DNA of 64,000 nucleotides from an uncultured archaeon (GCA_964559215.1 CAZLFZ010000003.1:18779-82778), one strand, 5' to 3'. Counted from the stretch's first letter, positions 19,813 to 56,140 are shown. The notes: a model not told the origin generated them from the letters alone. A program made the numbers and translations.

Positions 19813-20540
19813 TTATTTCTTACCCTTGTTTTTCCCCACATCTTTCGCTTTTTTCTTTTTCTCTTTCCGCTGCTTGCCATAGTCCTTTTGCACGCGCTTT
19901 GTGTCCTCAGCGGTTTCCAGCAGTTTAGCCATACTCTTTTCTGCCTGTTCTTCTTTCTCAGCTTCTTCCTTGATGTGTTTCTCAATCGCCCTTACATCCT
20001 CCAGCTCCTCGAGCAATTCCAATCCCTTTTTTTGTTCTTCAGCATCTTTTTTGGTAAGCTTTGGGAGCTTTTTCAACTCCCCCTTTTTCTTCTCGTAGTC
20101 CTTTTGCACGCGTTTTATGTCCTCTAACTTTTCCATTAGTTCGTTTTCCCTCTTCCATATTTTTTCCTGCTTCTCGGCCTTCTGTTCGGACTCTTTTTCC
20201 AGGGCCTTGGTATTCTCCAGCTCCTCGAGCAGCTTCAGCTCTTTGTCCCTCTTCTCGATTTCTGATTTCTTCAGTTTCTTTACCTTTATCCTTGTTCCGG
20301 TCTTTTTCAACCATTTATCGTATTGTTTCTGTACCCCCTTCATATCCTCAGCTTTTTCGAGCACAGCAAACCATCTTTTCTCTTTCCTTCTCTTAACTTT
20401 CCTGTCAGTTTCTTTCTGAACGGCTTTTACATCTTCAAGCTCTTCAAGCATCTGCTCTGTTGCTATTTGCTTTGCCTTCTCCTTCTTTCTCGGCTCCCTT
20501 GTTTTTTTCGGCAAGCCGGAGGGGAGTCTCGCCCCTGACA
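19813..20540. repeat. tandem coding repeats of about 215-220 bp (6 copies of the LEELEDxKxVQKDY motif) in the cytoplasmic tail
   Basis: Recurring DNA strings ctccagctcctcgagca (about 19995, 20215), gtccttttgcacgcg (about 19883, 20098) and tcttcaagctcttcaagca (about 20437). These generate the low-complexity artefact ORFs seen on the plus strand. Confidence 0.6.
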
Positions 20541-23500: not shown

Positions 23501-25857
23501 ACATAGCACATGGAAACTCTTTCCTCTGCTGTAAATAATCTGAACTCATAGATTATCAGGACAGCTGACGAGGAGTGATTTACCCTTATTTGGTTTGTTC
23601 TGAAGGGCGAGAATCCGGAAAATTCAGTCAAATTCTTGTCGTCGGGCGGGTTCACATCGGTGAAAAGAGGCATCCATGCACCGCTTTTTTTGTATAAAAT
23701 AGAAACATTTGCCTGACCGGCGCCATCCTCCCATAAGGCCTCGATTCTATCAAAGGTATAGCTGTCATTCAGCGTTATCTCAAGCCATGATGGGGTTTCA
23801 TCGCCAATCCAGGCAGTGTCAGTATTGTTGTCTATAGACAAGTTGCAGGACCCGACGTTGCAATTACCGCTTGTCCCTAAGTCAAGTAGCGCAACATTTT
23901 GACCTGTTCCTGTCCCAGCTTCTACACATTCGCTTTCATTTAGAATAGCAACCAATGCAGAGCTTGTGAAATCAACCCCAGCTAAATAGGGCTTTTCTAT
24001 GCTGAAGTTCAGCATATTTATGGGTGTCACATTTCCCACCACCTCTGTCCTTAGGGTTGTGTCGCCTGTGATGTTTATTGTGCTTGGAAATACAGTAATG
24101 TCTGGTAAAATAACTTCGTGTGAAATAGAATCCTCAGCACCAGTGCCATTGGCAGGGGTTGCATGCAAAGAGACACGTGTAAATCCTTCCTGTTTTGACT
24201 CTGCTTCCCATTTCACCGTTATTGTTGTCCCGTTTGTAATATTATACAGCTCCGGTTTGGACCACGTTCCCCCGGGGGTGAGGTTCAGAACACTTCGGTC
24301 CGTGATATTTAAAGTCAAATTCACCTGCATCAAATCCCCGTTTATAGCGGTAACGTTTACAGTGATGTTGCACGTTTGATTAGCAAGAATTCTGAAATTT
24401 GGAAAGATGAACTGGAGCTCAGTTGAGCCAAAACCCACCTCAAAGGAAAGATTGGTATAATCTTCAAAGTTTATATTCCCCAGGGTATCGTTTGCCCAGA
24501 CTTGCATTACATTATATGTTCCTAGCTGAGAAGTATCGTTCCACTCATAGATCCAGAAATCAGTGCCACTAGAATTAGAAAGAGTTACATTAACCTCTGT
24601 CCCATTTGGATACATAAAAGTCGCATTAACCGCGCTAACACCACTCGTGTCGTTTACTGTTACATTGAACAACACTCCATGACCAGGCTGGATTTTCGTC
24701 TCGTTCAACTGCGGGTTTGAAATTGTTGGACCTGTTGTATCATAGCTTAGTGTCTTCCATGCAGTACAATTATAGGTACCAGAGCAGTAGAATTCCATCT
24801 TTACTGGTATACCACCAACCCATTCAAGACACTCCCATTGTTGACAGACCTTCTTTGTTTCATCCCAAAAACTACAGTTCCATCTGTCACAGTAGTAGTC
24901 TGTTTCTGAGAATGCTCCATCGATTGAGCCTAAACACTCCCATTGATCGCAATAATTTCCATTCCAAGCAGAGCAATTCCATCCATTTGAACAATACCTG
25001 TCATACTCCTCTGAACTTTCAGCCCATGCTGTGCAGTTCCAAGCCTCGCAAACATCTCCATTCCAAACTATACAATCCCATACACCAGAACAATAAGAGT
25101 CTGCCTTTTGAGTTGATCCCTGAGCCCATTCGGTGCAATTCCAAATGTCACAATTAGTTCCGTTCCAGTTTGTACAGTTCCAGATGCCAGTAGAATAGTA
25201 ATCAGAGTCGTCATTTTCACTAAGAGACCAAGCTGTACAGTTCCAGTATCCACAATACCCCCCATTCCACTCTAGGCAATCCCAGTCACCAGAACAATAC
25301 ATAAGTCGTCTATCTTTTCCGCTGTTTGTCCACCCCTCGCACTTGTATTCTGCACAAGTAACCCCATTCCAACGTGTGCAGTTCCAGTTGCCTATACAGT
25401 ATTTTGACTGCTTGTCATCATCATATGTCCATGCCGTGCAGTTCCATAATTCACACTTCTCTGTAGTCTGTCCATAATCATTTAACTGGATTGGGGATTC
25501 ATCAAAATTATTGCCATCTGCCGGTCCCTTATCACTTACCCAAAAACCTTCAGACGACATAAAGAATGCGAGTGTCGCTTTTGGAGTAGCTGATACTAAA
25601 GGAATAAAGAAAAAAATGGTAAATAAAGAAATTAAGAAAACACCGAAAAACATACCTCCTTTTTTTCTACGCAGGATGTTTCTAAAAGGTCTCCGCCTGG
25701 GCTTGTGTTTCTTTCTAATTTCTTTCAACTTTTTTGTTGCCCCAGAGAAATCCTGACCAAGATAAACGTTGATGACCCGGCCATCCTTGTCCCTGAAGCT
25801 TTCATAATAATAAGGCCCGTGAATTTTTTTGCCTCTTTTTATATACTTCTTGTACAC
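19813..25857 (-). CDS. giant cell-surface glycoprotein (2014 aa): cytoplasmic N-terminal motif, signal-anchor, Cys/Trp repeat array, sequon-rich Ig/CARDB-like region, multi-TM segment and Lys/Glu-rich cytoplasmic repeat tail
   Basis: Complete ORF in the track. N-terminus MYKKYIKRGKKIHGPYYYESFRDKDG followed by TM FFGVFLISLFTIFFFIPLV. About 7 copies of WNCTAW..YCSG.W(N/D)C..WNG..C. More than 100 NxS/T sequons. About 7 predicted TM helices near the C-terminus, then LEELEDVKAVQK(D/E)Y repeats. Confidence 0.85.
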   Translation of the reverse strand: MYKKYIKRGKKIHGPYYYESFRDKDGRVINVYLGQDFSGATKKLKEIRKKHKPRRRPFRNILRRKKGGMFFGVFLISLFTIFFFIPLVSATPKATLAFFMSSEGFWVSDKGPADGNNFDESPIQLNDYGQTTEKCELWNCTAWTYDDDKQSKYCIGNWNCTRWNGVTCAEYKCEGWTNSGKDRRLMYCSGDWDCLEWNGGYCGYWNCTAWSLSENDDSDYYSTGIWNCTNWNGTNCDIWNCTEWAQGSTQKADSYCSGVWDCIVWNGDVCEAWNCTAWAESSEEYDRYCSNGWNCSAWNGNYCDQWECLGSIDGAFSETDYYCDRWNCSFWDETKKVCQQWECLEWVGGIPVKMEFYCSGTYNCTAWKTLSYDTTGPTISNPQLNETKIQPGHGVLFNVTVNDTSGVSAVNATFMYPNGTEVNVTLSNSSGTDFWIYEWNDTSQLGTYNVMQVWANDTLGNINFEDYTNLSFEVGFGSTELQFIFPNFRILANQTCNITVNVTAINGDLMQVNLTLNITDRSVLNLTPGGTWSKPELYNITNGTTITVKWEAESKQEGFTRVSLHATPANGTGAEDSISHEVILPDITVFPSTINITGDTTLRTEVVGNVTPINMLNFSIEKPYLAGVDFTSSALVAILNESECVEAGTGTGQNVALLDLGTSGNCNVGSCNLSIDNNTDTAWIGDETPSWLEITLNDSYTFDRIEALWEDGAGQANVSILYKKSGAWMPLFTDVNPPDDKNLTEFSGFSPFRTNQIRVNHSSSAVLIIYEFRLFTAEERVSMCYVYEFNYTNITLSGAHIVNATVYTQDSSVRNNASFVVNFGESLVSIDAPEVIIKGETKTYKTLVSADNGDLRNLTINLSIENQTILNISAGENWTKNISFIPSGSSSSVNWSINASAVGVTNTTTYVNSSTREGGFNYSSLSIDVILEDPIPPNVTDFWFNYSGIGVNKTNLFTSLSIFVNATDDVSLVSVRANITYPDNISVNGTLEKISSDIWQFKFGAGNNVENLELNRTGNCTIRITAVDIGNNEKKSGEDVGCPENLTFYVSDSYTLNLTTNESVYSRGETLTLKVYDVNDNLVSSVNWTVNLTRYNQSEAMIFNETNTTYTYQINESDPAGNCTMFANVSKQENRGNGTWYFNVSSSLLPVFTQPPAGTEYSANSGISPIPQIEVYNSRNELLGYTVNVALFCPNGNFSLERTGDLYYNISADCRSSSTPGIEFYLTANATDEYNNTGPGSLSLKTKAEEAAEPPPSRGRGPSIVGNISNVTCVPTPKNCSDGLDNDCDGFVDCGDTDCARDPACIIWTENFNVTVDTRVIEIVGGENGTVIGSIANMGNLDLNLSSNITKECCAVFIDKEFYLPVKGEIDFSVIIHVPLNTELREYLLTVRIGTADLEKSKSVNIVVLENPLITSLNGLEKQVPDLVLRVNEYAKAGVDVGALHGKVKNIEKTISESMDAIKMDDLEELRISISRIEMGINEIGLGLARVGIQKFLFENKWYITGIALAIFFASFFTTQLFIPLYRLKKETRKLGEEAKITAKTEESTEAQYFTRQIDKATYLKIITKEHDRLLEISSLIEENGKKLHEIVRPRYILSQLFKFPVLILRSLRWAIASTKSSAMQRKGVYLLYFALRLLVFCIPVYLIRWLRPDMSIVQAVVREEVLFITNVLGFIPLADAVTRAVQVTGLESLLIYAALVLATVGVTGRKRALGLVIGLPLMHLSNLAMIAGIVWIEKTYTWEIVTHIPDELWQFILIALAFIFWILWAWKLSGARLPSGLPKKTREPRKKEKAKQIATEQMLEELEDVKAVQKETDRKVKRRKEKRWFAVLEKAEDMKGVQKQYDKWLKKTGTRIKVKKLKKSEIEKRDKELKLLEELENTKALEKESEQKAEKQEKIWKRENELMEKLEDIKRVQKDYEKKKGELKKLPKLTKKDAEEQKKGLELLEELEDVRAIEKHIKEEAEKEEQAEKSMAKLLETAEDTKRVQKDYGKQRKEKKKKAKDVGKNKGKK
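24750..25440. repeat. array of about 34-residue Cys/Trp-rich repeats (WNCTAW..(x11)..YCSGxW(N/D)CxxWNGxxC) within the giant protein
   Basis: Visible in the translation: WNCTAWTYDDD.., WNCTRWNGVTC, WDCLEWNGGYCGYWNCTAWSL.., WNCTNWNGTNCDIWNCTEWAQ.., WDCIVWNGDVCEAWNCTAWAE.., WNCSAWNGNYCDQWECLG.., WNCSFWDE... Each unit carries an N-C-T sequon. Confidence 0.65.
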
Positions 25858-26083: not shown

Positions 26084-26854
26084 CTATTGTTTGTCAAAAA
26101 GGCTCTGCGCCTGGACATCTATCCCTTTGTTGGTAATCGTGAAATTGTAATACCCTTCGGTGAACGCAGAGCCACGTATCTTTTGTATGCTCAATCCCCT
26201 ATATGCTTTCCCCTCGCTATGCACATAGTCTAATTGTATGACCCCGTCAGCAATGAATTTCAACTGTTGCCAGTAGCCTGTTTCCGCCTCAACGGTAACC
26301 AGGGCGGTGACACCCAATTTTGCTATGTGTTTAAAGAAGGTCATGGCTCCCATCCTCGCCAGCGACTCAGAATCTGCCATCAAACTGATCGCGGTCAGGG
26401 GGTCTATGACCAAGCGTCGTGCACCAATTTCATTGACCGCCTCCTTGATAAGTTCAATGAGCGTATTGGTCGAAAGAAAATGGACACTTTTTTGGGCTTG
26501 TGACGTTGAACTAGTATATGCCGATAAAGCATTCTCAATATCACTAGAGACCGCCCTTATGTAAGGGATCACGCGGACCAAGTTTTCCCTTTCCAGTTTC
26601 TCTAGATCCCAGCCAAAGGATTTGATATTGCTTAACATCTTTGGCTTATCTTCTTCCAGATTGACGAGGACGCCCGGCTCCTTGAACTTGGCTGCACCAT
26701 TATAGATGAACTCCAACCCAAATATAGTCTTCCCTGTTCCGCAACCGCCAGTAATCACATAGATTTTCTTTTCTGGCAACCCTCCGTTTAAGAGTTCATC
26801 TAACCCTGCTATCCCGGTTTTGACCCGTTTCGGACCTGGTCTTTTTTCGCCCAT
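26084..26854 (-). CDS. single-domain KaiC-like ATPase
   Basis: GIAGLDELLNGGLP, Walker A GGCGTGKTIF, ..LVIDPLTA..; 256 aa. Confidence 0.9.
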   Translation of the reverse strand: MGEKRPGPKRVKTGIAGLDELLNGGLPEKKIYVITGGCGTGKTIFGLEFIYNGAAKFKEPGVLVNLEEDKPKMLSNIKSFGWDLEKLERENLVRVIPYIRAVSSDIENALSAYTSSTSQAQKSVHFLSTNTLIELIKEAVNEIGARRLVIDPLTAISLMADSESLARMGAMTFFKHIAKLGVTALVTVEAETGYWQQLKFIADGVIQLDYVHSEGKAYRGLSIQKIRGSAFTEGYYNFTITNKGIDVQAQSLFDKQ

Positions 26855-26861
26855 TTTCCCT

Positions 26862-27410
26862 TCACCTACCCTTTTCCTTACCCGTAAATATAATTTTATC
26901 AGAAAACATGCCCAAGTTTTTTATGAAATCTTCGTGCGCATCTTCTTCGAGACAGATAAAAATGCACCCCTTCTCAGATATTCTAAGCTTCGATACCAGC
27001 AAGTGCGTGAACTTGATGGCACTTGCCTGACTCCCATAGACCAAAAGGGTGGACAAGGAATCAAACAAGATGCAATCCACGTGCATGAGCAATGCCTTGG
27101 TAACCGTTATGCTCAATTCGGTGAGCGCATCAGGAGAAGATACAAATAACACCTGCCCTTCTTTCTGTTTTTCATCTACCCCCTTTACACAATCTATAAA
27201 AAGTATCTTCTTCGTATCGATTCCTCCCCCTTTAAATTCCTTTGTCAAGGTCGTGTACGGCTTGTTAAGAGACAAGTAACATATCATATTATGAATCTTT
27301 GTAGCAGCGCCAACAATCTCCTCTAGGGCGGTTCTATAGTTTTTGCTGGGAACAACAAAAACAACGACTTGATTTTCCTTCATCTCCATCTCTAGGTTTA
27401 TTTTCAGCAT
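26862..27410 (-). CDS. Walker-A-less KaiC/RecA-fold small protein (MEDS-like), 182 aa; operon partner of the KaiC at 26084-26854 (7-nt gap)
   Basis: Aligns along the KaiC core, but the P-loop is replaced (VVVFVVPSKNYRTALEEI). Conserved FIDCV ... ILFDSLSTLLVY ... FICLEED shared with three paralogs in the window. Confidence 0.75.
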   Translation of the reverse strand: MLKINLEMEMKENQVVVFVVPSKNYRTALEEIVGAATKIHNMICYLSLNKPYTTLTKEFKGGGIDTKKILFIDCVKGVDEKQKEGQVLFVSSPDALTELSITVTKALLMHVDCILFDSLSTLLVYGSQASAIKFTHLLVSKLRISEKGCIFICLEEDAHEDFIKNLGMFSDKIIFTGKEKGR

Positions 27411-27540
27411 CGTTACCTCGCGCTTCTACAGATCACGATTCGTGTTATGTTTTTCGTATTTTATTTTTATATGCTCTGCTTAATTAAGTTTTGGTAAGAA
27501 GCCTCATATTTATTAACGAAGAGAATACTTAAGATTTAAT

Positions 27541-28089
27541 ATGAAAAGTTTGGAAAGTTTAAACAAAATCCTTGAAAATGTGCTGAAAAAGAGGGCAATA
27601 ATTCTGCTCTCGTTTCTAAGCAAGGAATACAGAACTGGGATGACGAATCTAATAGCCTTTGCGACACACACGTTCAATAAGACCTGCTACGTCACGCTTA
27701 ATGATCCCTACGAAAGTATAGCCAGCAGGCTGGATGAGGAGCAGAAGTCCAAGCTGTTCTTCATAGACTGCATGACGGCTACGATCAAAACACCGGAGAC
27801 AAAAGAAAATGTGGTTTTCGTGTCGTCACCCCACGCTTTGACGGAGATGAGCATAGCATTAAAAAAAGTCATGGAAAAGGAAAAAATTGATTTTGTCATA
27901 TTTGATTCAATTTCAGCTTTGCTGGTTTATGAACAACCCTTATCGGTCCTGAAATTCGTTCATAGCCTAATCCTGATGTCCAGGGAAGCGAATCTGGGTA
28001 ACTCTTTTGTAATCCTGAAGGAGGATGTCAGCGAGCAATTGATGAAAGACCTGGCCATGTTTGTTGACAAAATTGTGGAGGTGGTATGA
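27541..28089 (+). CDS. Walker-A-less KaiC/RecA-fold small protein (MEDS-like), 182 aa
   Basis: Paralog of 26862-27410 (FFIDCMTA .. VIFDSISALLVYEQ .. VILKEDV). The stop TGA at 28087-89 is immediately followed by the GTG start of the PAS protein. Confidence 0.75.
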   Translation: MKSLESLNKILENVLKKRAIILLSFLSKEYRTGMTNLIAFATHTFNKTCYVTLNDPYESIASRLDEEQKSKLFFIDCMTATIKTPETKENVVFVSSPHALTEMSIALKKVMEKEKIDFVIFDSISALLVYEQPLSVLKFVHSLILMSREANLGNSFVILKEDVSEQLMKDLAMFVDKIVEVV

Positions 28090-28998
28090 GTGGTCGAAGG
28101 GATTGAAGATTTGATGAAAACCAGGGAAATCTACAGGGAACTCGCCGATACAGAGGGTGACGCAATTATAATTTTGGATTCAAAGGGCAAATTTGTGTTT
28201 TTGAACAAAGAGGTTGAGATAAAGACTGGTTATACGGAAAGCGAATTGATAGGAAAAGTGTTTACGAAGCTGTTGACGAAGCCCAGTGTATTAAAAGCTC
28301 TCTCCACTTCCCGAAAGGCTTTGTCAGGTGCACGGGTTAACCCGTATGAAATCGAAATCAAAAAAAAGGACGGAAGCATTATACCTGTGGAGGTTCAGGC
28401 AACGCCGATAAAGAGGAAAGGCAAAGTAATCGGGTTTCTGGTGATTGCAAGGGATCTCACCGAACGGAAGAAAGTAGAGGAGGAACTGAGGATTAAGGAA
28501 AGCGCCATAAAATCGTCCATCGATGCCATTGCAATGTCAGACCTTAATGGCAATCTGACATACGTGAATCCATCCTTTCTCAAGATGTGGGGATATGATA
28601 ACGAAAAGGAGGTTCTGGGGAAGCCAGCTGTAGGGTTTTGGCAGACGGAAGAGAAGGCTTCAGAGGTAGTAGTGGCCTTGCGTGACACGGGAAGCTGGAA
28701 GGGTGAACTGGTCGCCAAAAAAAAGGACGGCTCAATGTTATATGTCCAGCTTTTGGCAAGCATGACTAAAGACGAGAATGGCAAACCCATCTCCATGATG
28801 TCTTCATTTATAGACACCACTGCTCGCAAGAGGGCTGAGGAGGAGCTAAAGAAAAAGACAGAAGAACTGGAGAAATCGAAGAAAGAACTGGAAGCAAAGA
28901 TTCATGACCTCGAAAGGTTCAGCAAGATGTCTGTCGGCAGGGAACTGAAGATGGTTGAATTGAAGAAGAGGATAAAGGAATTGAAAAACGGGGGATAA
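28090..28998 (+). CDS. double PAS (S-box) domain protein with C-terminal coiled-coil module and no recognisable output domain
   Basis: Two PAS-like blocks (..ADTEGDAIIILDSKGKFVFLNKEVEIKTGYTESELIGK.., ..IDAIAMSDLNGNLTYVNPSFLKMWGYDNEKEVLGK..); C-terminal ELEKSKKELEAKIHDLERFSKMSVGRELKMVELKKRIKEL. Confidence 0.85.
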   Translation: MVEGIEDLMKTREIYRELADTEGDAIIILDSKGKFVFLNKEVEIKTGYTESELIGKVFTKLLTKPSVLKALSTSRKALSGARVNPYEIEIKKKDGSIIPVEVQATPIKRKGKVIGFLVIARDLTERKKVEEELRIKESAIKSSIDAIAMSDLNGNLTYVNPSFLKMWGYDNEKEVLGKPAVGFWQTEEKASEVVVALRDTGSWKGELVAKKKDGSMLYVQLLASMTKDENGKPISMMSSFIDTTARKRAEEELKKKTEELEKSKKELEAKIHDLERFSKMSVGRELKMVELKKRIKELKNGG

Positions 28999-29064
28999 TA
29001 ATAAGTAAATAATATTAATTAATATTATATTAATAATTATTTAAACAAAGTATAACAAAGTATA

Positions 29065-30462
29065 ATGAGGGGCGTCAATATGAGCAGGGAGGTAAAAACA
29101 ATTGCCTTTTTCGCATTGCTTTTTTTAACAATATTCATATCGGGATGTGTAACTCAGGAAGATGTTTCCCTTGGGGCTGGAGAAACGCAACAGCCAGAGG
29201 TTCAGGAAAAAACAAAACTTGTCTATGCAGTCCACTGGATGGATGAAACCCAGATAAACGGAACTTATGAGAATGGTGAACTGAAATCAAAGGGTTTAGT
29301 ACATTATCTGAACGAATATGAGGAATTGCACCCCGAAATAGAATTCGAGATAATGCAAATTACATACTCAGAATATGAAAGCAAACTCAGAATCCTGCAT
29401 GAACTTGATGAGGTTCCCGACATTTATCAGGTTTATTCTACATGGGGGGTTTCTCACCAAAACTTAGGCATATTGGACGAACCGCCTCAGGAGATAAAGG
29501 ATGATGTTGCCCAAAATTACACATCAACCGCGGGTGTTACAATAAATGGTGATACATGGGGTATTCCCACGGAAATCAACGTCTTCGCCCTCCTTTATAA
29601 CAAGGCGCTTTTCAAGGAAGCAGGAGTTATTGATGAGCAAGGGGAGCCAAAGATCCCCGTGACCTGGAATGAACTGATTGATGCGGCATCGAAAATAACA
29701 AAAAAAGACAGCGAGGGCAATATTATACAATATGGTTTTGCTTTCTCAAAAGGAATGGACTGGGGTGTGGTAGATCCTTTCCTATGCCTGTTAGTCAGTA
29801 ACGGCGGAAAATATCTATCGGATGATAACAGCCAGTGTCTTGTCAATAGTTCAGAGGGTGTCGAGGCACTGGAAAAGATATTGGAATTGTTTAGCAAAGG
29901 TGGAACTGATGCGTACGGTGATGTTATCAGTGGTTTCGGAGAAGGCAAGACAGCGATGATTTTAATGCCTCCTTGGGTGGAAGGAATGTTTAGGGACGCC
30001 CTTGGTGATAAATTTGATACGGATGTGGGCGTTGCCCCTGTTCCCTATCTGAAAAAACCCGGTACTTTGCAGTATAGCTGGTTCATGGGCGTATTGAGTA
30101 AAAGTAAACATAAAAAGGAGGCGTGGGAGTTCCTTAGGTGGTTCACTTCAGAGATTCAGCCAAAGACAGGTACGACAAGGTATGGTGATCTGTTAACAGA
30201 TCCTATTGGCGCTATCCCAAGCAGGAGGTCAGATATTGAGGGTAATAAGGATAAACTAAATACACCATTCAAGAGGGTATTTGTTGAAGAACTAGAAAAT
30301 TCTGTCCCAGAGCCAAACATAATGCAGGCTTCCCAAGTAAAGAATATATTGATGGGCGAGATTGAGTCGGCATGGGCTGGTGAAAAAACTGCTAAAGAAT
30401 CTTTGGACTCAGCGTGTGCTAAAATAAATGAAATTCTGGCGAAGTATTATCCGCAAAAGTGA
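29065..30462 (+). CDS. extracellular solute-binding protein (ABC-type, family 1/MalE-like), lipoprotein-like signal (…ISGC)
   Basis: Signal peptide plus Cys; 465 aa with the typical SBP_bac_1 architecture (..WGIPTEINVFALLYNK.. ..MPPWVEG..). An alternative start is at 29080. Confidence 0.8.
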   Translation: MRGVNMSREVKTIAFFALLFLTIFISGCVTQEDVSLGAGETQQPEVQEKTKLVYAVHWMDETQINGTYENGELKSKGLVHYLNEYEELHPEIEFEIMQITYSEYESKLRILHELDEVPDIYQVYSTWGVSHQNLGILDEPPQEIKDDVAQNYTSTAGVTINGDTWGIPTEINVFALLYNKALFKEAGVIDEQGEPKIPVTWNELIDAASKITKKDSEGNIIQYGFAFSKGMDWGVVDPFLCLLVSNGGKYLSDDNSQCLVNSSEGVEALEKILELFSKGGTDAYGDVISGFGEGKTAMILMPPWVEGMFRDALGDKFDTDVGVAPVPYLKKPGTLQYSWFMGVLSKSKHKKEAWEFLRWFTSEIQPKTGTTRYGDLLTDPIGAIPSRRSDIEGNKDKLNTPFKRVFVEELENSVPEPNIMQASQVKNILMGEIESAWAGEKTAKESLDSACAKINEILAKYYPQK

Positions 30463-31451
30463 GAAATTTGAAATTCAAAATAGGCAGGTTAACGATTAAA
30501 ATAACTCTTTTCATAATCTCTTTGATATTCCTGTCTTTATTTGTTTTTTCCTTTGTTTTTTTACTGTCTGAGCAGAACAAAATGTCCGAGGAAATACTGG
30601 AAGATGGGCTGATTTTCGCAGAGTTCATTACGCGTTCTATATATGATGACTATGTGAGGGAGTATACCCATATTCATTCGCAGGAAGGTTTCGATGGATT
30701 TAAGGAGGGTGTAGAGCAAAAACTGGACAAAAACAAGGATGTAACCAAAGTCTCTTTAGTTGGTATAAACGGAAAAGTTATTTTCGATTCTGATGAATTC
30801 AAAGAAGGCAAAAAATATAACGGGTCGGGGAGATTTATTGAGGATTCTGTTACTTTGGGGCTTCTTAAAAACGAAGATGTGTCTTACTTGAAAAGGCAAT
30901 TAAATGGCGAAGATATCATTGAAATAGTCATGCCGATAGAGGAAACGTCAGGAGGCCATCTCATGTCAATGAGATATATCGTTTCTTATAATTCTCTTAT
31001 AGAAAGAATGGCTGAAGTATACCAGCAAATTCTTTTGATAATTGTGCCCATATTCATAATTACTTTTGTTTTGACAATCACCTTTTCGATAAGTTTAACC
31101 AAACCAATTATTATGTTAAGGGGGTTGACCGAAAAGGTAAGAAAAGGTAATCTGAGTGTGAAAATTAATCTAAAAACCCGTGACGAGATAGGAGAGCTCG
31201 CATCCTCATTCAACCAGATGACAAAGGACCTGAAGGAGTCTAGGAAAGGGCTGGAAGAATACAGCAAGGACCTGGAAAAAGAAGTAAAAGAGAGGACTGT
31301 TGAACTTGAGAAATCCAAAAAAGAGCTGGAAGCAAGAAACGAGGAGCTCGAACGGTTCAACAAGATGGCGGTGGGCAGGGAACTGAAGATGGTTGAATTG
31401 AAGAAGAGGATAAAGGAATTGGAAAACGAACTTAAAAAGAAGCAGAAATAG
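30459..31451 (+). CDS. membrane sensor: TM - extracytoplasmic domain - TM - HAMP - coiled coil, no kinase domain
   Basis: GTGA overlap with the upstream stop. HAMP: IIMLRGLTEKVRKGNLSVKINLKTRDEIGELASSFNQMTKDL. The C-terminal ELEKSKKELEARNEELERFNKMAVGRELKMVELKKRIKELE is almost identical to the C-terminus of 28090-28998. Confidence 0.8.
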   Translation: MRNLKFKIGRLTIKITLFIISLIFLSLFVFSFVFLLSEQNKMSEEILEDGLIFAEFITRSIYDDYVREYTHIHSQEGFDGFKEGVEQKLDKNKDVTKVSLVGINGKVIFDSDEFKEGKKYNGSGRFIEDSVTLGLLKNEDVSYLKRQLNGEDIIEIVMPIEETSGGHLMSMRYIVSYNSLIERMAEVYQQILLIIVPIFIITFVLTITFSISLTKPIIMLRGLTEKVRKGNLSVKINLKTRDEIGELASSFNQMTKDLKESRKGLEEYSKDLEKEVKERTVELEKSKKELEARNEELERFNKMAVGRELKMVELKKRIKELENELKKKQK

Positions 31452-31525
31452 TATCAAGCTGCGTTTAAACAAATTCTATTCGTGTTTATTTAAATATCAT
31501 ATAAAACAAAAATATTATAGGTAAC

Positions 31526-32623
31526 ATGGTAGCAGAAAAATTGGCTAGTGGTTATGGAAAAGTCATAATACCTGTCATATTGATATTGATTATCGTTGCT
31601 GCAGTTTCGTCTTTTTATCTGTTACCTTTCGGTGAGGAAGGACCGCAATCAGCGAGTGGAACTTCGGGGGTGCCTGCACAAAAATTCAAAATTCTTCATA
31701 TCATGAGTTACCACTCTCCTTGGAAATGGACCGACGATCAGCTTGATGGATTCAAGGATGCCATGGCTGGCATAGATGCGGAATATCGGGTATTCCAGAT
31801 GGACACCAAGCGGAAAAGTAGTGAGGAATGGATGCAAGAAGCCGCCCGGCAGGCGCGAGAATTAATCGATACGTGGCAGCCTGATTTGGTATACACAAAC
31901 GATGATAATGTCCAGGAGTATGTTGTCAAACATTATGTAAATTCTGATACACCGTTCGTATTCAGTGCGGTCAACGCGGATCCGTCTGTTTACGGGTTTA
32001 CAGGAAGCAGCAATGTTGCCGGGATACTTGAGGAGGAGCATTTCGTGCAGACTGTGAATTTGCTGAGACAAATTGTGCCAAATGTCAAGAAGATAGCGGT
32101 TATTTTTGACGAGGGCTTGACATGGATAGGGGTACGTCAAAGGATGGAAGAAAAGGCGCCAAAACAGCTTCAAGATATAGAGTTCGTAAGCTGGGACACG
32201 ATTCACACCTTTGAAGAGTACAAGCAGAGAATAGGGGAGCTCCAAAACGAGGCGGATGCGATCGCACTTCTGGGTATATTCACGTTCAAGGACGAGAACG
32301 GCACCAATGTCCCCTATCAGGACGTGCTGGAATGGACGGCTGAGAACAGCAACCTGCCCGACTTCAGCTTCTGGGAAGACCGCATATCTTATGGTACACT
32401 ATGTGCCGTAACTGTTTCGGGGTATGAGCAGGGCCTGGCGGCAGGTGAGATCGCAAGGGGCATTCTGGTTGATGGCAAAAGCCCGCCAAGCTTCCCATTC
32501 GAGCCAACAGTCAAGGGAGAGCCGGTCATAAGCCTTGCAAGGGCGAATAAATTGGGACTCCAAATAAGCAGCGAACTGCTTTTGTCTGCGGATATCATCG
32601 AAACGTTTGAATGGGAGAAGTAA
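31526..32623 (+). CDS. ABC-type substrate-binding-like protein (COG2984/PF04392-type), the kind commonly paired with sensor kinases
   Basis: N-terminal TM; periplasmic-binding-protein-like fold signature; the stop TAA abuts the ATG of the histidine kinase at 32624. Confidence 0.7.
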   Translation: MVAEKLASGYGKVIIPVILILIIVAAVSSFYLLPFGEEGPQSASGTSGVPAQKFKILHIMSYHSPWKWTDDQLDGFKDAMAGIDAEYRVFQMDTKRKSSEEWMQEAARQARELIDTWQPDLVYTNDDNVQEYVVKHYVNSDTPFVFSAVNADPSVYGFTGSSNVAGILEEEHFVQTVNLLRQIVPNVKKIAVIFDEGLTWIGVRQRMEEKAPKQLQDIEFVSWDTIHTFEEYKQRIGELQNEADAIALLGIFTFKDENGTNVPYQDVLEWTAENSNLPDFSFWEDRISYGTLCAVTVSGYEQGLAAGEIARGILVDGKSPPSFPFEPTVKGEPVISLARANKLGLQISSELLLSADIIETFEWEK

Positions 32624-34351
32624 ATGAAGAACCTTAGCGTTCGCGCTAAGATAATTTCGATTTCAACACTAATAATGCTTTTTGCACTTAGCTTAAACAG
32701 TTTTTATAGCGGTAATTTCTTCGCGGCTGAATATTCCAAAGCCCTCCATTCAAAGTCATTAAACGTAGGGCAGGTTTTAACGCAACGCTTAGGCGTCTTG
32801 CTTGAATTGGGAATAGACATAAATGGAATTGTGGGTTTCGAAAAACAATGCAAAGATGTAGTCGAGAACTACGAGGAAATCTCGTATGCCATGGTCGTGG
32901 ATTTAGACGGCAAGATAATTTTTCACAACGACCCTTCCCAACACGGCAAAACATTGACTAATCATGAAGTTCTAATGGTGATAAAAACCGAGAATAGTAC
33001 CACTAGACAGCACTCCATTGAAGGGGAGAAATTCTATGGCAGCTTTGTCCCTGTCTTTGGCAAAGATAAAAACCACATCGCAGCAATTATGGTAGGGGTT
33101 CCTGTGAGTTTTATTGAAGAAAAGATGCGAAACATGTTCATGAACTCTCTCATGGTTACGATTTTATTTCTGGTTATTGGCATATTGTTGTTGATTACTA
33201 CGCTTTCCATGTGGGTAACAAAACCGCTTGGAAAATTGGTCGATGTGATTCGGGAAATAGGGGAGAAGGGCAAACTTAGCAAAAAGGTTAGAATCAATTC
33301 CGATGACGAGATAGGACAGCTCGCCTCCGCATTCAACCAGATGATAGATGATTTAAAGGGGTCGAGGATTAAGCTAGAGGAATACAGCAGGTCTCTGGAA
33401 AAAAGGGTCACCGAGAGGACAAATGAACTGAATAAAAAAGTCGAGGAAGTGACAAAGACGAAAACGGCCATAATGAACATGATGGAAGATACGGACGAGG
33501 CGAACAAACAGCTTATAAAAACCCAGAAGGAACTGAAGGAAAGCTTGAGGGAACTGAGAGAAATGGACATAAAGAAGGATCAGTTCATATCAATCGCAGC
33601 GCATGAACTCAAGACTCCACTGACATCCATTCACGGATTCTCGCAGTTGCTTCAAGATAGGAAAATTGCAAATAAGTTCACGAGGAGGAACAGATACCTT
33701 AAGATAATGGAACATGAAAGCAAAAGGCTTGCCGGGCTTGTGAGCAATATTCTTGACCTATCCAGGCTAGACCTCGGGACGGTGAAGCTCAGTCTTGAAC
33801 CAGTTGATATGAACGAACTAATGGAGGATTTAAAAAAGGAAATGAGTATACCGGTAGAGGAGAAGGGGCTGGAATCGAAATATGAAATAGAAAAAGAGTT
33901 GCCAAAAATTTTAACAGACAGGGAGAGGGTGACCGAGATATTGATAAACTTCATAAACAACGCTTTGAAGTACACGTCGAAAGGTAAAATAACGGTAAAG
34001 GTTTCCAGGGAAAAGAAAAATCTGCATTTCATGGTCAAGGACACGGGAATAGGCATATCAAAAGAGAACCACGAAAAGATATTCCAGAGGTTCTATCAGG
34101 TGGATTCATCCTATACAAGAAAGGCAGGGGGGACAGGTCTTGGCCTGTCCTTGTGCAGGGAATTCCTAAAAATACTCGGCGGGGAGATATGGGTAAAGAG
34201 CGAACTGGAAAAGGGGAGTGAATTCCACTTTACACTGCCCATCAGAGGCGTTTCAAAAGAGCATCTCTGGGAGGAGGAAGCAAAGGCTAAAGAGAGTCTC
34301 AAAAAAGCAGAGGAAGTGATAAAAAGTGTGGAAATACTGAGCGGAAAATAA
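32624..34351 (+). CDS. sensor histidine kinase (TM-sensor-TM-HAMP-coiled coil-HisKA-HATPase_c)
   Basis: HAMP KPLGKLVDVIREIGEKGKLSKKVRINSDDEIGQLASAFNQMIDDL; H-box ISIAAHELKTPLTSIHGF; N/G-boxes ..INNALKYT.. DTGIGIS..GGTGLGLSLC. Confidence 0.9.
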   Translation: MKNLSVRAKIISISTLIMLFALSLNSFYSGNFFAAEYSKALHSKSLNVGQVLTQRLGVLLELGIDINGIVGFEKQCKDVVENYEEISYAMVVDLDGKIIFHNDPSQHGKTLTNHEVLMVIKTENSTTRQHSIEGEKFYGSFVPVFGKDKNHIAAIMVGVPVSFIEEKMRNMFMNSLMVTILFLVIGILLLITTLSMWVTKPLGKLVDVIREIGEKGKLSKKVRINSDDEIGQLASAFNQMIDDLKGSRIKLEEYSRSLEKRVTERTNELNKKVEEVTKTKTAIMNMMEDTDEANKQLIKTQKELKESLRELREMDIKKDQFISIAAHELKTPLTSIHGFSQLLQDRKIANKFTRRNRYLKIMEHESKRLAGLVSNILDLSRLDLGTVKLSLEPVDMNELMEDLKKEMSIPVEEKGLESKYEIEKELPKILTDRERVTEILINFINNALKYTSKGKITVKVSREKKNLHFMVKDTGIGISKENHEKIFQRFYQVDSSYTRKAGGTGLGLSLCREFLKILGGEIWVKSELEKGSEFHFTLPIRGVSKEHLWEEEAKAKESLKKAEEVIKSVEILSGK

Positions 34352-34363
34352 AATCAGCCTGAT

Positions 34364-34732
34364 TTACTCCAGCGCTTTCTTTACCCTTTTGACGAGGTCC
34401 TGGTTGTCAAAAGGTTTCGTGATGTAATCCAGAACATCCATCTTTTCCAGAACATCCTTCCCCGCCTCTGAGAATTTTGCCACAGTGAGGAATGCGATTT
34501 TCAAGTCCTTTGTTTCAGGGTCCTTCCTTATACTTTCACAGACTTCCCTTCCACTCATCCCTGGCATCATCATATCAAGCAAGATGAGATCGGGTTTCAC
34601 CGTTTTCAGTTTTTCCAGGCATTCCTTTCCGCTCATGGCCGGGATTACTTCGTAGTTCTCTTGTTCCATAAGCGCCTTAACAAGCTCGACCAAACTTTCC
34701 TCATCATCCACGATCATTATTTTTTTTGCCAT
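34364..34732 (-). CDS. single-domain response regulator (CheY-like receiver)
   Basis: IMIVDDEE ... DLILLDMMMPGMSG ... KIAFLTVAK; 122 aa. Confidence 0.9.
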   Translation of the reverse strand: MAKKIMIVDDEESLVELVKALMEQENYEVIPAMSGKECLEKLKTVKPDLILLDMMMPGMSGREVCESIRKDPETKDLKIAFLTVAKFSEAGKDVLEKMDVLDYITKPFDNQDLVKRVKKALE

Positions 34733-34774
34733 GTTATCATTTAGTTATTGAATTAAAGTATATAAATTCTTTAT

Positions 34775-34870
34775 GCTCGGGTACCTGATGTGTCCCAATA
34801 CCGCTCGGGTGTCCATTACACGCATCAGGTCTTCAGTTCCCTGGATCCTAGCCTGATGTGTCCCAATGCC
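34775..34870. promoter_or_regulatory. upstream element of the response-regulator gene: 16-bp direct repeat cctgatgtgtcccaat (about 34784 and 34852) plus an 8-bp-arm inverted repeat acctgatg..(26 nt)..catcaggt; TATA-like tatataaa at about 34759-34768
   Basis: Read directly from the intergenic sequence between the MEDS-like gene stop (34872) and the RR start (34732). Confidence 0.3.
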
Positions 34871-34871
34871 C

Positions 34872-35444
34872 CTAATCCGGCTTCTCTGTCATGTCAACAG
34901 TAGTGTCAGCAAACATACACAAGTCTTTTATCATACCCTGATTTTCTCCACCTGGCAAACCACTTCCTTTAAGGACGATGTAGATTTTCTTGGTTTTTTC
35001 CTGCATCTTGTCAGTCATTATTTCGTGCGTGAACCTAACGATGGAATAGCTCTCCTGGTATATCAGCAGGGACGAGATGGTATCAAATATTATCACGCTG
35101 CATTTTTTCTCCATGATGACCTTTTCTATCGCCAGTCTTATCGAAACCAGTTCTGGTGGTGCTTCCAAAAAGATGCAGTTTTTAACGGGTTTTGGCTTAA
35201 AGTAATGCGAGCTAAGGATATCTATGAAGAAGAAGTTTTTGTCATTGACGCCTATTCTCTTTAAATCCTCAATAACATCCTTGTAGGGTTTTGACAGGCA
35301 GACATAGCATATTTTTGTTTTGGTTTCCCCTATGTTTTTTACTATATCTTTCAATTTCATTTCATACTGCTTCTCTTCAAGCAGCAGCATCAGAAACCTT
35401 GACTTGGTTATTTCTTGCAGCAAATTCATACCATCCTGCTCCAT
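34872..35444 (-). CDS. Walker-A-less KaiC/RecA-fold small protein (MEDS-like), 190 aa
   Basis: Paralog of 26862-27410 and 27541-28089 (FFFIDILS .. IIFDTISSLLIYQE .. IYIVLKGS). Confidence 0.75.
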   Translation of the reverse strand: MEQDGMNLLQEITKSRFLMLLLEEKQYEMKLKDIVKNIGETKTKICYVCLSKPYKDVIEDLKRIGVNDKNFFFIDILSSHYFKPKPVKNCIFLEAPPELVSIRLAIEKVIMEKKCSVIIFDTISSLLIYQESYSIVRFTHEIMTDKMQEKTKKIYIVLKGSGLPGGENQGMIKDLCMFADTTVDMTEKPD

Positions 35445-35543
35445 CTTTATTATGTGATATATTTTTATTTAAAAGAGCTTCTATTTAAAATAAGTTTAAA
35501 CATATAATAAAAATATTTAACTAATTATAACAATTATTAAAAC

Positions 35544-36665
35544 ATGACTCGATTCTCTGATATCAAGATTCACGATACCACCCTCAGAGACGGCGAACAG
35601 ATGCCTGGTGTTGTCTTTGATTTTAACGAAAAAATCAAGCTTGCTGAAAAAATAATGCAATTTGACGCGGATTTGATTGACATAATGCCCGTGGTTTCCG
35701 ATTCAGAGTTCAGGGTCACAAAAGAACTCACGGATATGTTTGGTGATAAGGTTTCTGCTACATGCAGAATCAAAAAATCGGATGTAGATATAGCCATGGA
35801 TGCGGGTGCCGAAAGGGTCACACTGTTCACACCGCTTTCTGATTTGCACATAACCCACAAACTGCGGATAAGCAGAGAGGAAAATCTCAAAAAGACGTCT
35901 GAAATGGTTGATTATGCAAGAGCCCACGGACTGATCGTGGATTTCGCAGGGGAAGACACGAGCAGGGCCGACTTCAATTATTTTAAGCGATTTTTAAAAG
36001 AAATCCACAACAGGATATCCGTATTCTTCATAGCCGATACTGTCGGCTGTCTTACCCCCAAATCTACAAGAAACTTGGTCTCTTACCTTAAAAAGAATCT
36101 CAACTGTCAGGTCGGAATCCACACGCACAACGATTTCGGCATGGCAACCGCAAACGCCGTGGAGGGCGTGCTTGCGGGGGCTGATTATTTTTCAGGAACC
36201 TTTACGGGGATTGGAGAAAGGGCTGGAAACGCAGCAATCGAAGAGGTCTGCATCGCATTGAAGCACTTGCATGGAAGGGACCTTAAAGTGAAGTCCGAAA
36301 TGCTGCTGGAAATATGTGACATGGTCCAGGAATTCTCAGGTGTGAAGATTCAGCGACACAAACCTGTTATAGGGGAAAATGCCTTTGCCCACGAATCAGG
36401 GATTCACGTAGATGGGGTTCTTAAAGATCCGAGAACTTATGAGTTTTTTGAACCGGAATCGGTAGGGCAGAAAAGAAAGATTTGCATGGGCAAGCATAGC
36501 GGGAGGAGTATTCTGAAGCACATGTTCGGTGGGGGAATCCTTCAGGATTCCAGCGTTGCCATCAAGGAGATAAAAGCCATCTATGAGGCCAAGGATGTTC
36601 CTTTCTCACGCAAAGATGCTGCTATCAAGTTGTCATGGGTGAAGAAGCGTCTGGTGACTGTATGA
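35544..36665 (+). CDS. HMGL-like DRE-TIM metallolyase: short-form 2-isopropylmalate/homocitrate/citramalate synthase family
   Basis: IHDTTLRDGEQMPG, HTHNDFGMATANAVEGV, GIGERAGNAAIEEV. 373 aa, lacking the LeuA C-terminal regulatory domain. Confidence 0.85.
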   Translation: MTRFSDIKIHDTTLRDGEQMPGVVFDFNEKIKLAEKIMQFDADLIDIMPVVSDSEFRVTKELTDMFGDKVSATCRIKKSDVDIAMDAGAERVTLFTPLSDLHITHKLRISREENLKKTSEMVDYARAHGLIVDFAGEDTSRADFNYFKRFLKEIHNRISVFFIADTVGCLTPKSTRNLVSYLKKNLNCQVGIHTHNDFGMATANAVEGVLAGADYFSGTFTGIGERAGNAAIEEVCIALKHLHGRDLKVKSEMLLEICDMVQEFSGVKIQRHKPVIGENAFAHESGIHVDGVLKDPRTYEFFEPESVGQKRKICMGKHSGRSILKHMFGGGILQDSSVAIKEIKAIYEAKDVPFSRKDAAIKLSWVKKRLVTV

Positions 36666-37474
36666 AGGGTAAGGCTGTTTGGCTCGTCTACAGGAAGCTG
36701 AGGCCGGCATTCGGGATATCTTTCGCCTTCATACTCCTGTCGGGAGTGTTCTTGGGAGTCATGAATTTCAAGGTCATCATGGCTGCACTGGGGTTCCTTT
36801 TCATAGAGCTTTTCGCGGCTTTCTACAACGACTACTGGGATTTTTCCGATGACATAAAGAACGAGAGAAAGGACAAATTCACGACCCTTGGCCTCATGAG
36901 CACGAGGTCGTGCCTGTACCTGTCCCTCATCCTGGCATGCCTGTCCTTGATCTTCCTTATGTTCACAGACACATCTTTCCTGATGATTGGTATACCGTAC
37001 CTAGCGCTTGGGTTCCTCTATTCCCACAAGAGGGTCAGGCTGAAGGGGACGATCACCGGTTATGCTATCCTCTCATCCCCCTTCTTTATCCTCCCGCTAC
37101 TCATCGCGGGTGCAAATGGCATTCCGCTGACGAGAGCCATGCCCATATCCACCTTCCTCTTCTTCCAGTACATGTACATACTCTGCCAAAAGGATTCGAC
37201 AGACATGAGGGACAAGAAGAATGTCTTCATGGTCTATGGCTGGAAGAGAACGAGTATGTCTGTAACCCTTTTCAGTATCTCGGCTTCTATTTCGTTGTTC
37301 ATCATTTCTTTATCGTTTCCCCCATTGATGCTGATATGGTTATTCAATACGGCACTGAAGTCACTCAACATAAAAGACATAGCAAAGGGCACCGTAACGA
37401 GAGGAAGGCGGGGCAGAATCATTCTGCTCGACTATACCACAGAATACCTTTATATCTTAGGTGGATTACTGTGA
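36662..37474 (+). CDS. UbiA-family prenyltransferase (ATGA overlap with the upstream stop)
   Basis: NDYWDFSDDIKNERKD (NDxxDxxxD motif); about 8 TM helices. Start moved to the ATG at 36662 (MKGKAVWLVYRKL) overlapping the TGA at 36663-65. Confidence 0.8.
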   Translation: MKGKAVWLVYRKLRPAFGISFAFILLSGVFLGVMNFKVIMAALGFLFIELFAAFYNDYWDFSDDIKNERKDKFTTLGLMSTRSCLYLSLILACLSLIFLMFTDTSFLMIGIPYLALGFLYSHKRVRLKGTITGYAILSSPFFILPLLIAGANGIPLTRAMPISTFLFFQYMYILCQKDSTDMRDKKNVFMVYGWKRTSMSVTLFSISASISLFIISLSFPPLMLIWLFNTALKSLNIKDIAKGTVTRGRRGRIILLDYTTEYLYILGGLL

Positions 37475-40622: not shown

Positions 40623-41297
40623 CTAGATGACCTTGGTTTCTGTAAGTCTTATGTATTTGTTATCTATTAAAAGCTCGTGGGGCAGCTTGGCATCGAAATT
40701 TGTGTATCTCATCTTATGCACTACCAAGGCCCGCATGGGCTTCTCCTCGAGCTCCAGGAATATCAACTGCATCACGCCATCACATTCAAATGATTCATGA
40801 CCGCTTGAATCCAACTTTTCATCAGAGTCTGTTTCGCACAAAAGCAGCGAGGATTTTGCGTTTTTCAGGCTGTTGATAAGCTCTATGAAGTAGGCCCTGT
40901 AAGATTTCTTGCTCTCAGAGAACATCAGCAGCTTGTTGACATTATCTATCACTATTCTGTCTATTTTTGGGTAGCTCGAGATAATGTCTATAAACCTCTT
41001 CATGGACAAATTGCTCTGAGCCATTGGTATGTATTCTATGGCCAGGTTTTTCCCCATGTATTTTTTCACACTGTTCAGGGATTTTACGGACTCGCATGCC
41101 TTGATTAACTCCTCTTTGTTTTCATTTAGCGTTATGTAACAACATTTCTCACCTTTTTTGGAACCCTCTAGCATAAATTTTAGACCCAGCAGCGTTTTTC
41201 CAGTTCCCGGACCTCCGGAAAGCAAAATGACCGACTTTTCTGGGAACCCTCCGGCTAGCATGCTGTCCAGTTTTTTCAGGCCTGTTGTGACTCTCAT
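40623..41297 (-). CDS. single-domain KaiC-like ATPase (start at internal ATG with GAGGAGGA SD; track ORF extends to a TTG at 41327)
   Basis: GLKKLDSMLAGGFP, Walker A GGPGTGKTLL, ..IVIDNVNK.. Confidence 0.85.
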   Translation of the reverse strand: MRVTTGLKKLDSMLAGGFPEKSVILLSGGPGTGKTLLGLKFMLEGSKKGEKCCYITLNENKEELIKACESVKSLNSVKKYMGKNLAIEYIPMAQSNLSMKRFIDIISSYPKIDRIVIDNVNKLLMFSESKKSYRAYFIELINSLKNAKSSLLLCETDSDEKLDSSGHESFECDGVMQLIFLELEEKPMRALVVHKMRYTNFDAKLPHELLIDNKYIRLTETKVI

Positions 41298-41298
41298 A

Positions 41299-56131: not shown

Positions 56132-56140
56132 ACTATCCAA

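Follow-up and report, generated by a model that had tools for sequence, protein, structure and literature searches.

The stretch of DNA analyzed here, a window of 64,000 nucleotides from an uncultured archaeon (GCA_964559215.1, CAZLFZ010000003.1:18779–82778), contains between positions 26,084 and 35,444 a cluster of genes that encode small proteins with a KaiC fold and no P-loop, a KaiC-family ATPase, and the components of a two-component system. The conserved linkage of these genes, together with the Walker-less KaiC fold, makes a dedicated signaling module with non-catalytic KaiC-like parts the best reading of the locus. On balance, the small proteins, which have about 185 amino acids (aa) and are referred to as iKaiC (inactivated KaiC), are expected to be non-enzymatic protein–protein adaptors in a two-component pathway linked to KaiC ATPases. 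The three proteins of the cluster are iKaiC-A (27541–28089, plus strand, 182 aa), iKaiC-B (34872–35444, minus strand, 190 aa) and iKaiC-C (26862–27410, minus strand, 182 aa), whose gene is oriented divergently to that of iKaiC-A. All the open reading frames (ORFs) claimed in a preliminary description of this DNA are present, and a fourth copy that it had placed in a CBS fusion at 17313–18317 (minus strand, 334 aa) is indeed a paralog.

The four paralogs, that is the three small proteins and the C-terminal half of the CBS protein, match each other with phmmer E-values of 1e-20 to 3e-33 at 25–37% identity. The motifs quoted for them previously were found in the sequences, with VVVFVVPSKNYRTA at the P-loop position, FIDC, and (I/L)FD(S/T)(I/L)S(A/T/S)LL. 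An AlphaFold2 model of iKaiC-A, built with 38 homologs, has a mean pLDDT of 94.2 and a pTM of 0.90, and a Foldseek search of the Protein Data Bank (PDB) with this model returned KaiC and PH0284 on top (E ~1e-6, TM-score 0.66–0.74). The model displays the RecA-like α/β core, superimposable on KaiC or PH0284, by which the KaiC/RecA-superfamily fold is recognized. With sequence only, the closest PDB entries were FlaH (E 0.0027) and KaiC (E 0.0039).

The active site is lost throughout the family. The Walker A motif GxxxxGK[ST] occurs in none of 112 family members, as compared with 66 of the 68 neighboring KaiC ORFs, and the P-loop position reads S-K-x-Y-R instead. The two catalytic Glu positions are replaced by N-(K/D), and the last ~60 aa of KaiC are missing. 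Scores of 15–23 bits against PF06745 fall under the 26.6-bit cut-off, so that neither profile nor motifs (Walker A, Glu pair) identify the iKaiC proteins as active KaiC-family ATPases. The Walker B Asp of the (I/L)FD(S/T) block is kept in 99% of members despite the loss of the rest of the site. Given the loss of Walker A, the replacement of the Glu pair and the structural match, the description of the small proteins as KaiC/RecA folds without a P-loop is correct. Eight family members (P0133, P0136, P0143, P0152, P0157, P0160, P0166 and P0186) are extended at the C-terminus by two hydrophobic helices, implying membrane-anchored forms of iKaiC. Another member, of 396 aa (P0091), gives a sub-threshold match to CheC (E 4e-4), a family of CheY-phosphate phosphatases.

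The name MEDS-like, which had also been proposed, is not appropriate for these proteins. In a Pfam profile search, MEDS (PF14417) matched one of 38 family members (E 0.043) and no small protein of the window, where its lone weak match is to an active KaiC (19025–19780; E 0.0097). MEDS membership was accordingly rejected. At E-values up to 1, DUF7504 matches 37 of the 38 members; KaiC matches 37, weakly, and DUF835 matches 35. Against the 27-bit gathering cut-off of DUF7504 (PF24336), iKaiC-A (29.8 bits) and the CBS fusion (32.4 bits) score above, iKaiC-C (23.1 bits) scores below, and iKaiC-B has no match. The clade of iKaiC-B (18 members examined) is closer to DUF835 (16/18, best E 4.6e-7) than to DUF7504 (5/18), and KaiC matches 16 of the 18. 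Many of 218 iKaiC-B homologs carry a precomputed DUF835 (PF05763) match, and the iKaiC-B protein of the window itself reaches 13.2 bits for a cut-off of 33.1. The family profile recovers iKaiC-B with an E-value of 2e-60 and iKaiC-C with 1e-62, and 3087 representative clusters (50% identity) match it at E-values up to 1e-3. No function has been described for DUF7504, nor did the literature searched yield a paper on it. The domains DUF835, MEDS and divergent PF06745 have been classed together as "iKaiC" (Galperin et al. 2018, PMC5847659). The small proteins can be placed in this class, the regulator-linked copy being DUF835-like.

iKaiC-A heads a sensor/kinase operon. As had been claimed, its stop codon (28087–28089) is immediately followed by the GTG start, at 28090, of a gene for a kinase-less cytoplasmic PAS-PAS sensor (28090–28998, plus strand; PAS_9, 107 bits in two stretches). 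The next genes, also on the plus strand, encode a solute-binding lipoprotein, SBP1 (29065–30462; SBP_bac_1, PF01547, 109.7 bits), a kinase-less membrane sensor (30459–31451) with a transmembrane (TM) segment, an outer domain of ~150 aa, a second TM segment and HAMP (45.4 bits), a membrane-anchored solute-binding protein, SBP2 (31526–32623; ABC_sub_bind, PF04392, COG2984 type, 70.4 bits), and a membrane histidine kinase (32624–34351). The SBP1 gene overlaps the membrane sensor gene by 4 nt, and the stop of the SBP2 gene abuts the kinase start. The TM segments of the HAMP protein lie at residues 6–24 and 183–220, and the kinase has a similar topology of TM segment, outer domain and TM segment. 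It contains sCache_3_2 (44 bits), HAMP (50.8 bits), HisKA (66.7 bits) and HATPase_c (111.6 bits) domains, with an intact H-box, AAHELKTPL.

Beyond the kinase gene lies, on the minus strand, the gene of a CheY-like response regulator (34364–34732; Response_reg, 95 bits) that consists of a REC domain without output domain, in which DD9-10, D53, T83 and K106 are all present. Judged by their residues, kinase and regulator would constitute a classical two-component pair, with H-box His, HATPase domain, and the acceptor Asp of REC with its DD, T and K. The regulator shares 57–82% identity with its orthologs in other DPANN phyla, an unusually high conservation for a REC domain. The iKaiC-B gene lies upstream on the same strand, 139 nt before the REC gene, and iKaiC-C lies 7 nt upstream of the KaiC gene 26084–26854, both in agreement with the arrangement described before; Pfam likewise recovered each of the neighbors that had been named (KaiC, PAS-PAS, two solute-binding proteins, the HAMP protein, the kinase, REC and the CBS pair). 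The 139-nt spacer is unusually GC-rich, orthologous spacers having 0–107 nt. An exact 16-nt direct repeat, CCTGATGTGTCCCAAT, is located at 34784–34799 and 34852–34867, 68 nt apart, with an imperfect inverted copy at 34820–34829. The gap gave no sign of a structured RNA, with a non-significant fold z-score of -1.0 and no Rfam match.

The KaiC partner of iKaiC-C (26084–26854, minus strand, 256 aa) had been called a bona fide KaiC. It is a KaiC-family ATPase (PF06745, 196.8 bits) with intact Walker A (GGCGTGKT), EE and Walker B motifs. It is not, however, a two-domain clock protein, as it consists of a single domain and scores 161.7 bits with the NCBIfam model of circadian KaiC (NF006799/TIGR02655; cut-off 408). 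The second single-domain KaiC-family ATPase of the window, 19025–19780, scores 152 bits with the same model.

A Methanosarcinales origin, as formerly assumed for the window, is not supported, as both the closest relatives and the genomes that share its synteny are metagenome-assembled genomes (MAGs) of Aenigmatarchaeota and other DPANN lineages. The named close homologs all come from Aenigmatarchaeota MAGs, and identical genes are found on JGI and Logan metagenome contigs. The host is a DPANN archaeon close to Aenigmatarchaeota; the best genome match, in a collection with one genome per species, is 58–60% identical, so that this collection does not contain the species. Scanning this collection yielded 141 relatives, of which 79 loci (given L numbers) were kept. 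These span Aenigmatarchaeota, Woesearchaeota, Nanoarchaeota, Altiarchaeota and Iainarchaeota/Diapherotrites, with a few relatives whose record label, "uncultured Methanosarcinales", is unconfirmed. ORFs were called in all 79 loci and labeled with the window queries and the family HMM, giving 108 stand-alone iKaiC genes.

The neighborhood, whose absence from related genomes had been named beforehand as a refuting result, is conserved in many DPANN genomes. In the Aenigmatarchaeota MAG JAFGSV01, the order iKaiC (188 aa), kinase, REC, iKaiC (193 aa), HMGL, UbiA, UbiA corresponds exactly to that of window positions 27541–37474, without the PAS, solute-binding and HAMP genes. REC genes lie within 300 bp of 36% of the 108 iKaiC genes, a kinase within 3 kb of 47%, a KaiC within 1.5 kb of 32%, and a second iKaiC within 5 kb of 52%. 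Over the 79 loci, REC density falls ~8-fold, from 0.171/kb in the first kb around iKaiC to 0.012–0.029/kb at 5–10 kb (25 REC genes in 146 kb against a background of 0.02/kb; rough Poisson p ~2e-15). Where at least 5 kb is available on both sides (n = 35), a two-component part lies within 5 kb in 26 loci, and a two-component part or KaiC in 33.

Solute-binding proteins are rare in this setting, with SBP2 within 5 kb of two of the 108 iKaiC genes and SBP1 of none. The locus L024 has both of them beyond the kinase, ~5–8.5 kb from the nearest iKaiC genes. They are a variable input outside the core. The wiring proposed in the preliminary description holds for the linkage of iKaiC with KaiC and two-component genes across many genomes, but not for the two solute-binding proteins, which are a variable insert. 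The conserved core consists of iKaiC, one or more PAS/HAMP sensors, kinase, REC and a second iKaiC. In SBP1, a hydrophobic stretch at the N-terminus precedes a lipobox-like FISGC, SBP2 has an N-terminal TM anchor, and no ABC permease or ATPase is encoded near the two genes, so that solute-dependent sensing is the natural reading inferred for them. Both are likely co-sensors, SBP2 probably of the kinase.

Clustering of the proteins shows that gene context is specific to each iKaiC clade. For at least 20 of the 27 members of the iKaiC-B clade, the next gene downstream is a REC gene of the same orientation. Over all clades, same-strand iKaiC-to-REC pairs number 23, with 0–107 nt between the two genes. 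After the genes for iKaiC-A-like proteins come those for PAS/HAMP sensors or the kinase, and in many cases the stop and start codons overlap. Genes for iKaiC-C-like proteins are followed by KaiC (L029, L043), and the order iKaiC, KaiC, giant protein, KaiC is common to the window and L029. The CBS-iKaiC gene of L024 heads an operon of iKaiC, REC, iKaiC, iKaiC and REC.

This distribution bears on a rather unlikely alternative, according to which the iKaiC proteins are regulatory subunits of the KaiC ATPases, as Rad51 paralogs or Elp4/5/6 are in other systems, and cap or join KaiC rings so as to tune the ATPase or autokinase, the two-component genes being merely co-regulated. The 7-nt spacing of iKaiC-C and KaiC agrees with such a role, as do KaiC-to-iKaiC pairs of Altiarchaeota and Iainarchaeota with no two-component genes in their vicinity (L040, L044, L052, L060, L062, L064, L066, L070 and L075). 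The sharply enriched neighbor is nevertheless REC and not KaiC, which in the iKaiC-B clade lies within 400 bp only in L072 (divergent) and L077, and the absence of the KaiC C-terminal region from iKaiC speaks against a ring subunit as well.

For the adaptor reading, we infer the following physical contacts, direction of information flow and final output. Outside signals would enter through the two solute-binding proteins, paired with the TM-HAMP sensor and the sCache kinase, and inside signals through the PAS-PAS protein. The kinase would phosphorylate the REC-only regulator, which, having no output domain, would act by binding iKaiC-B. Docking of phosphorylated REC on iKaiC-B, encoded just upstream, would represent the split form of fusions that are already catalogued in other archaea, with iKaiC as the output domain of REC: REC-DUF835, iKaiC-REC and MEDS-REC (PMC5847659). 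iKaiC-A, translationally coupled to kinase-less sensors, would act at the input or kinase end, iKaiC-C would be paired with the active KaiC-family ATPase, and the CBS-fused copy would add an adenosyl-ligand input. Candidates for the output are the KaiC ATPases, the coiled-coil/winged helix-turn-helix (wHTH) proteins and the adjacent giant surface proteins, each by its proximity only.

Several observations weigh against this scheme. iKaiC-B and REC are 139 nt apart in the window, without tight coupling, and the enrichment of KaiC is diffuse (0.096/kb in the first kb vs 0.02–0.09/kb further out). Mixed KaiC/iKaiC rings are less likely because iKaiC has no KaiC C-terminal hairpin region. No REC or kinase fusion occurs among the top 150 family representatives or 120 listed iKaiC-B homologs, and the argument from fusions therefore draws on sister families only. 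A scan of 20 multidomain representatives for REC, kinase or PAS fusions was likewise negative; the partners found were CBS pairs, two-TM anchors, coiled coils and unknown N-terminal regions. The CBS, two-TM and coiled-coil fusions are as would be expected of a transducer module.

The former nucleotide site also retains polar residues, the invariant Y30, D76, D122 (the Walker B Asp), S125 and H141 and the conserved N54-(K/D)-P, and binding of a ligand by iKaiC is conceivable. These residues count against a pure adaptor and in favor of an unlikely second alternative, in which iKaiC is a ligand-binding sensor domain, as proposed for MEDS, with a remodeled nucleotide pocket that binds a small molecule and informs the kinase or regulator. 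The position of iKaiC-A at the head of the sensor/kinase operon is compatible with sensing, and MEDS, a sensor in archaeal kinases, is grouped with the iKaiC domains (PMC5847659). The family, however, hardly matches the MEDS profile (the single hit mentioned above), and the module is already rich in sensor domains (two PAS, sCache, two solute-binding proteins and a CBS pair). In the CBS fusion, moreover, iKaiC stands where an effector would, on the C-terminal side of the ligand-binding CBS pair. A role as degenerate recombination mediators of the RadB/Rad55 type, or within an anti-virus defense island, with incidental signaling neighbors, is highly improbable, in view of the clade-specific adjacency to REC, kinase and PAS genes, which several DPANN phyla have kept, of KaiC and PH0284 scoring clearly above recombinases, and of a PADLOC search in which no defense model matched any iKaiC and the active KaiCs gave weak P-loop matches only.

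The PAS-PAS and HAMP sensors end in a common, highly conserved helix of ~45 aa, ELE(R/K)F..(L/M)..GREL(K/R)M(I/V)ELKK, also written LERFxKxxVGRELKMxELKK and reading LERF..VGRELKMVELKK in the PAS-PAS protein. It is encoded at 28837–28998 and 31275–31451, in a region of 57% identity over 87 aa between the two sensors, and the motif occupies residues 306–315 of 330 in the HAMP sensor. A regular expression recovered it from 30 further DPANN proteins, in each case 10–31 residues from the C-terminus. The carriers are kinase-less PAS or HAMP sensors of 185–1207 aa (a few shorter matches are fragments), and the motif is never found inside a kinase. Read off the coordinates, ~17 of the sensor genes lie directly downstream of an iKaiC-A gene. 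The motif also occurs in ANME-2, in the context of PAS-motif protein, hybrid kinase, REC and REC-MetOD1, and in Patescibacteria, in that of kinase, REC and an 88-aa motif protein. Outside the window, the loci noted for the helix are L010–L084, L089 and L090. No iKaiC gene was found in the 2–6 kb flanks of these genes, L089 and L091 being cut by contig ends. Its position beside kinase and REC without iKaiC ties the motif to two-component genes generally, and weakens the idea that it is an iKaiC docking site.

A degenerate HisKA H-box was also considered for the helix (GRELKM vs SHELRTP) and discarded, as the HisKA match has an E-value of only 0.14 and another register. The motif has no model in the local copy of Pfam, no relative in the PDB and no match in the literature. 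PF28175 is listed on the homolog P0302 beside HAMP and ECM11; its coverage of the helix motif is unconfirmed. A more extended scheme can be drawn, which we regard as doubtful in its entirety. The three pseudo-KaiC proteins would form a relay at the output stage of DPANN two-component signaling, in which phosphorylated REC docks on the DUF835-like copy and kinase-less PAS/HAMP sensors plug in via the 45-aa helix common to ANME and Patescibacteria. The relay would drive the KaiC ATPases that flank giant surface proteins, and couple sensing of environment or host to the surface behavior of an episymbiont.

Further genes of the KaiC family, and two ORFs with a coiled coil and a winged helix, are found elsewhere in the window. 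The second ATPase mentioned above (19025–19780, minus strand; PF06745, 200.3 bits; Walker A GKAGTGKT) lies on the far side of a giant surface protein gene. Two more genes with intact Walker A, 40623–41327 (minus) and 41728–42585 (plus), form a divergent pair downstream of HMGL-UbiA, which is syntenic in an Aenigmatarchaeota MAG (L007, 19043–20567). A chimeric ORF at 18528–19028 (minus), which overlaps the stop of KaiC 19025–19780 by 4 nt, consists of a KaiC C-terminal fragment (30.8 bits, residues 4–62), a coiled coil and a winged helix (HTH_24). Its N-terminal 66 aa resemble the C-terminal part of KaiC 41728–42585, and the 100 aa at its C-terminus, with the coiled coil and the winged helix, recur near-identically in 55679–56140 (minus). 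The pair looks like a recent duplication or chimera, and a role of 18528–19028 as a transcriptional output is speculative. KaiC-wHTH fusions as a common output were rejected, because it was the KaiC fragment in this ORF that had produced the matches; synteny of the wHTH half is confined to the four closest relatives, L009, L015, L017 and L018.

Four ORFs of the window are very large: 3–13736 (minus, at least 4578 aa, cut by the left end of the window), 19813–25857 (minus, 2014 aa), 42999–47267 (minus, 1422 aa) and 57721–63999 (plus, at least 2093 aa, cut by the right end). A cytoplasmic N-terminal motif, KKYIKRGxKxxGPYYYE, with a TM helix after it is common to the first two and to a 2127-aa protein of L029, and KaiC genes stand on both sides of the 2014-aa gene in the window and of its counterpart in L029. 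The CBS-CBS-iKaiC gene (CBS, 96.9 bits in two stretches) has just upstream of it a protein with PIN, PilT-like ATPase and KH parts (14201–16003, plus) and a PGF-pre-PGF surface protein (16383–17282, plus).

The module offers a candidate partner for archaeal regulators without output domain, in the form of a stand-alone dead KaiC-fold protein beside a conserved REC across DPANN phyla. Bare REC domains make up ~40% of archaeal response regulators, and most of them have no conserved neighborhood, so that their targets are not known (PMC5847659). As a simple system of small soluble proteins, the module lends itself to a biochemical test of the "KaiC hub" hypothesis, and it also reveals a conserved putative output helix on kinase-less sensors. 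In the literature searched, there was no description of stand-alone, multi-paralog iKaiC proteins with clade-specific operon partners across DPANN, of the tight pairing of iKaiC with REC-only regulators, or of the common C-terminal helix of the kinase-less sensors. The census of 2018 took in only four complete DPANN genomes (PMC5847659).

Among known systems, the published iKaiC domains (DUF835, iKaiC-REC and MEDS-REC) are the nearest. They share with the proteins studied here a KaiC/RecA fold without a working P-loop, an association with REC and kinases, and a proposed role as non-enzymatic hub or adaptor. By contrast, the present proteins are stand-alone, of ~185 aa, with three to four paralogs per locus that each have their own conserved partner; they are linked to REC by an adjacent gene and not by fusion, and their DUF835 scores are below the gathering cut-off. 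KaiC-like ATPases and their inactivated homologs were reportedly put forward as archaeal signaling hubs by Makarova and co-workers in 2017. As inactivated KaiC in archaeal signaling has thus been published already, the general picture is unchanged. Experimental work on Haloferax volcanii, where suppressors that bypass the quorum-sensing inhibition of motility hit the KaiC-like CirA and a two-component regulator (PMC13464002), may be regarded as a parallel to the iKaiC module.

Single-domain KaiC-like ATPases such as PH0284 (PDB code 2dr3), SSO2452 and ArlH/FlaH, the last being the best PDB sequence match, bind ATP via an intact Walker A, and ArlH autophosphorylates, whereas iKaiC has neither Walker A nor the catalytic Glu pair nor the C-terminal ~60 aa. 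In the archaellum motor, adaptor proteins connect ArlH with a CheY-type regulator. The pseudo-ATPase RecA-fold subunits Elp4/5/6, XRCC2 and RAD51D are only distantly similar to iKaiC, and belong to another process without signaling context. At the level of the system, an analogy exists with the cyanobacterial KaiC-SasA/CikA-RpaA pathway, in which a KaiC-family protein is coupled to a histidine kinase and a response regulator. Unlike the cyanobacterial clock, the archaeal module has no KaiA or KaiB, no double-domain KaiC and no evidence of oscillation, and places dead KaiC-fold parts beside the kinase and regulator.

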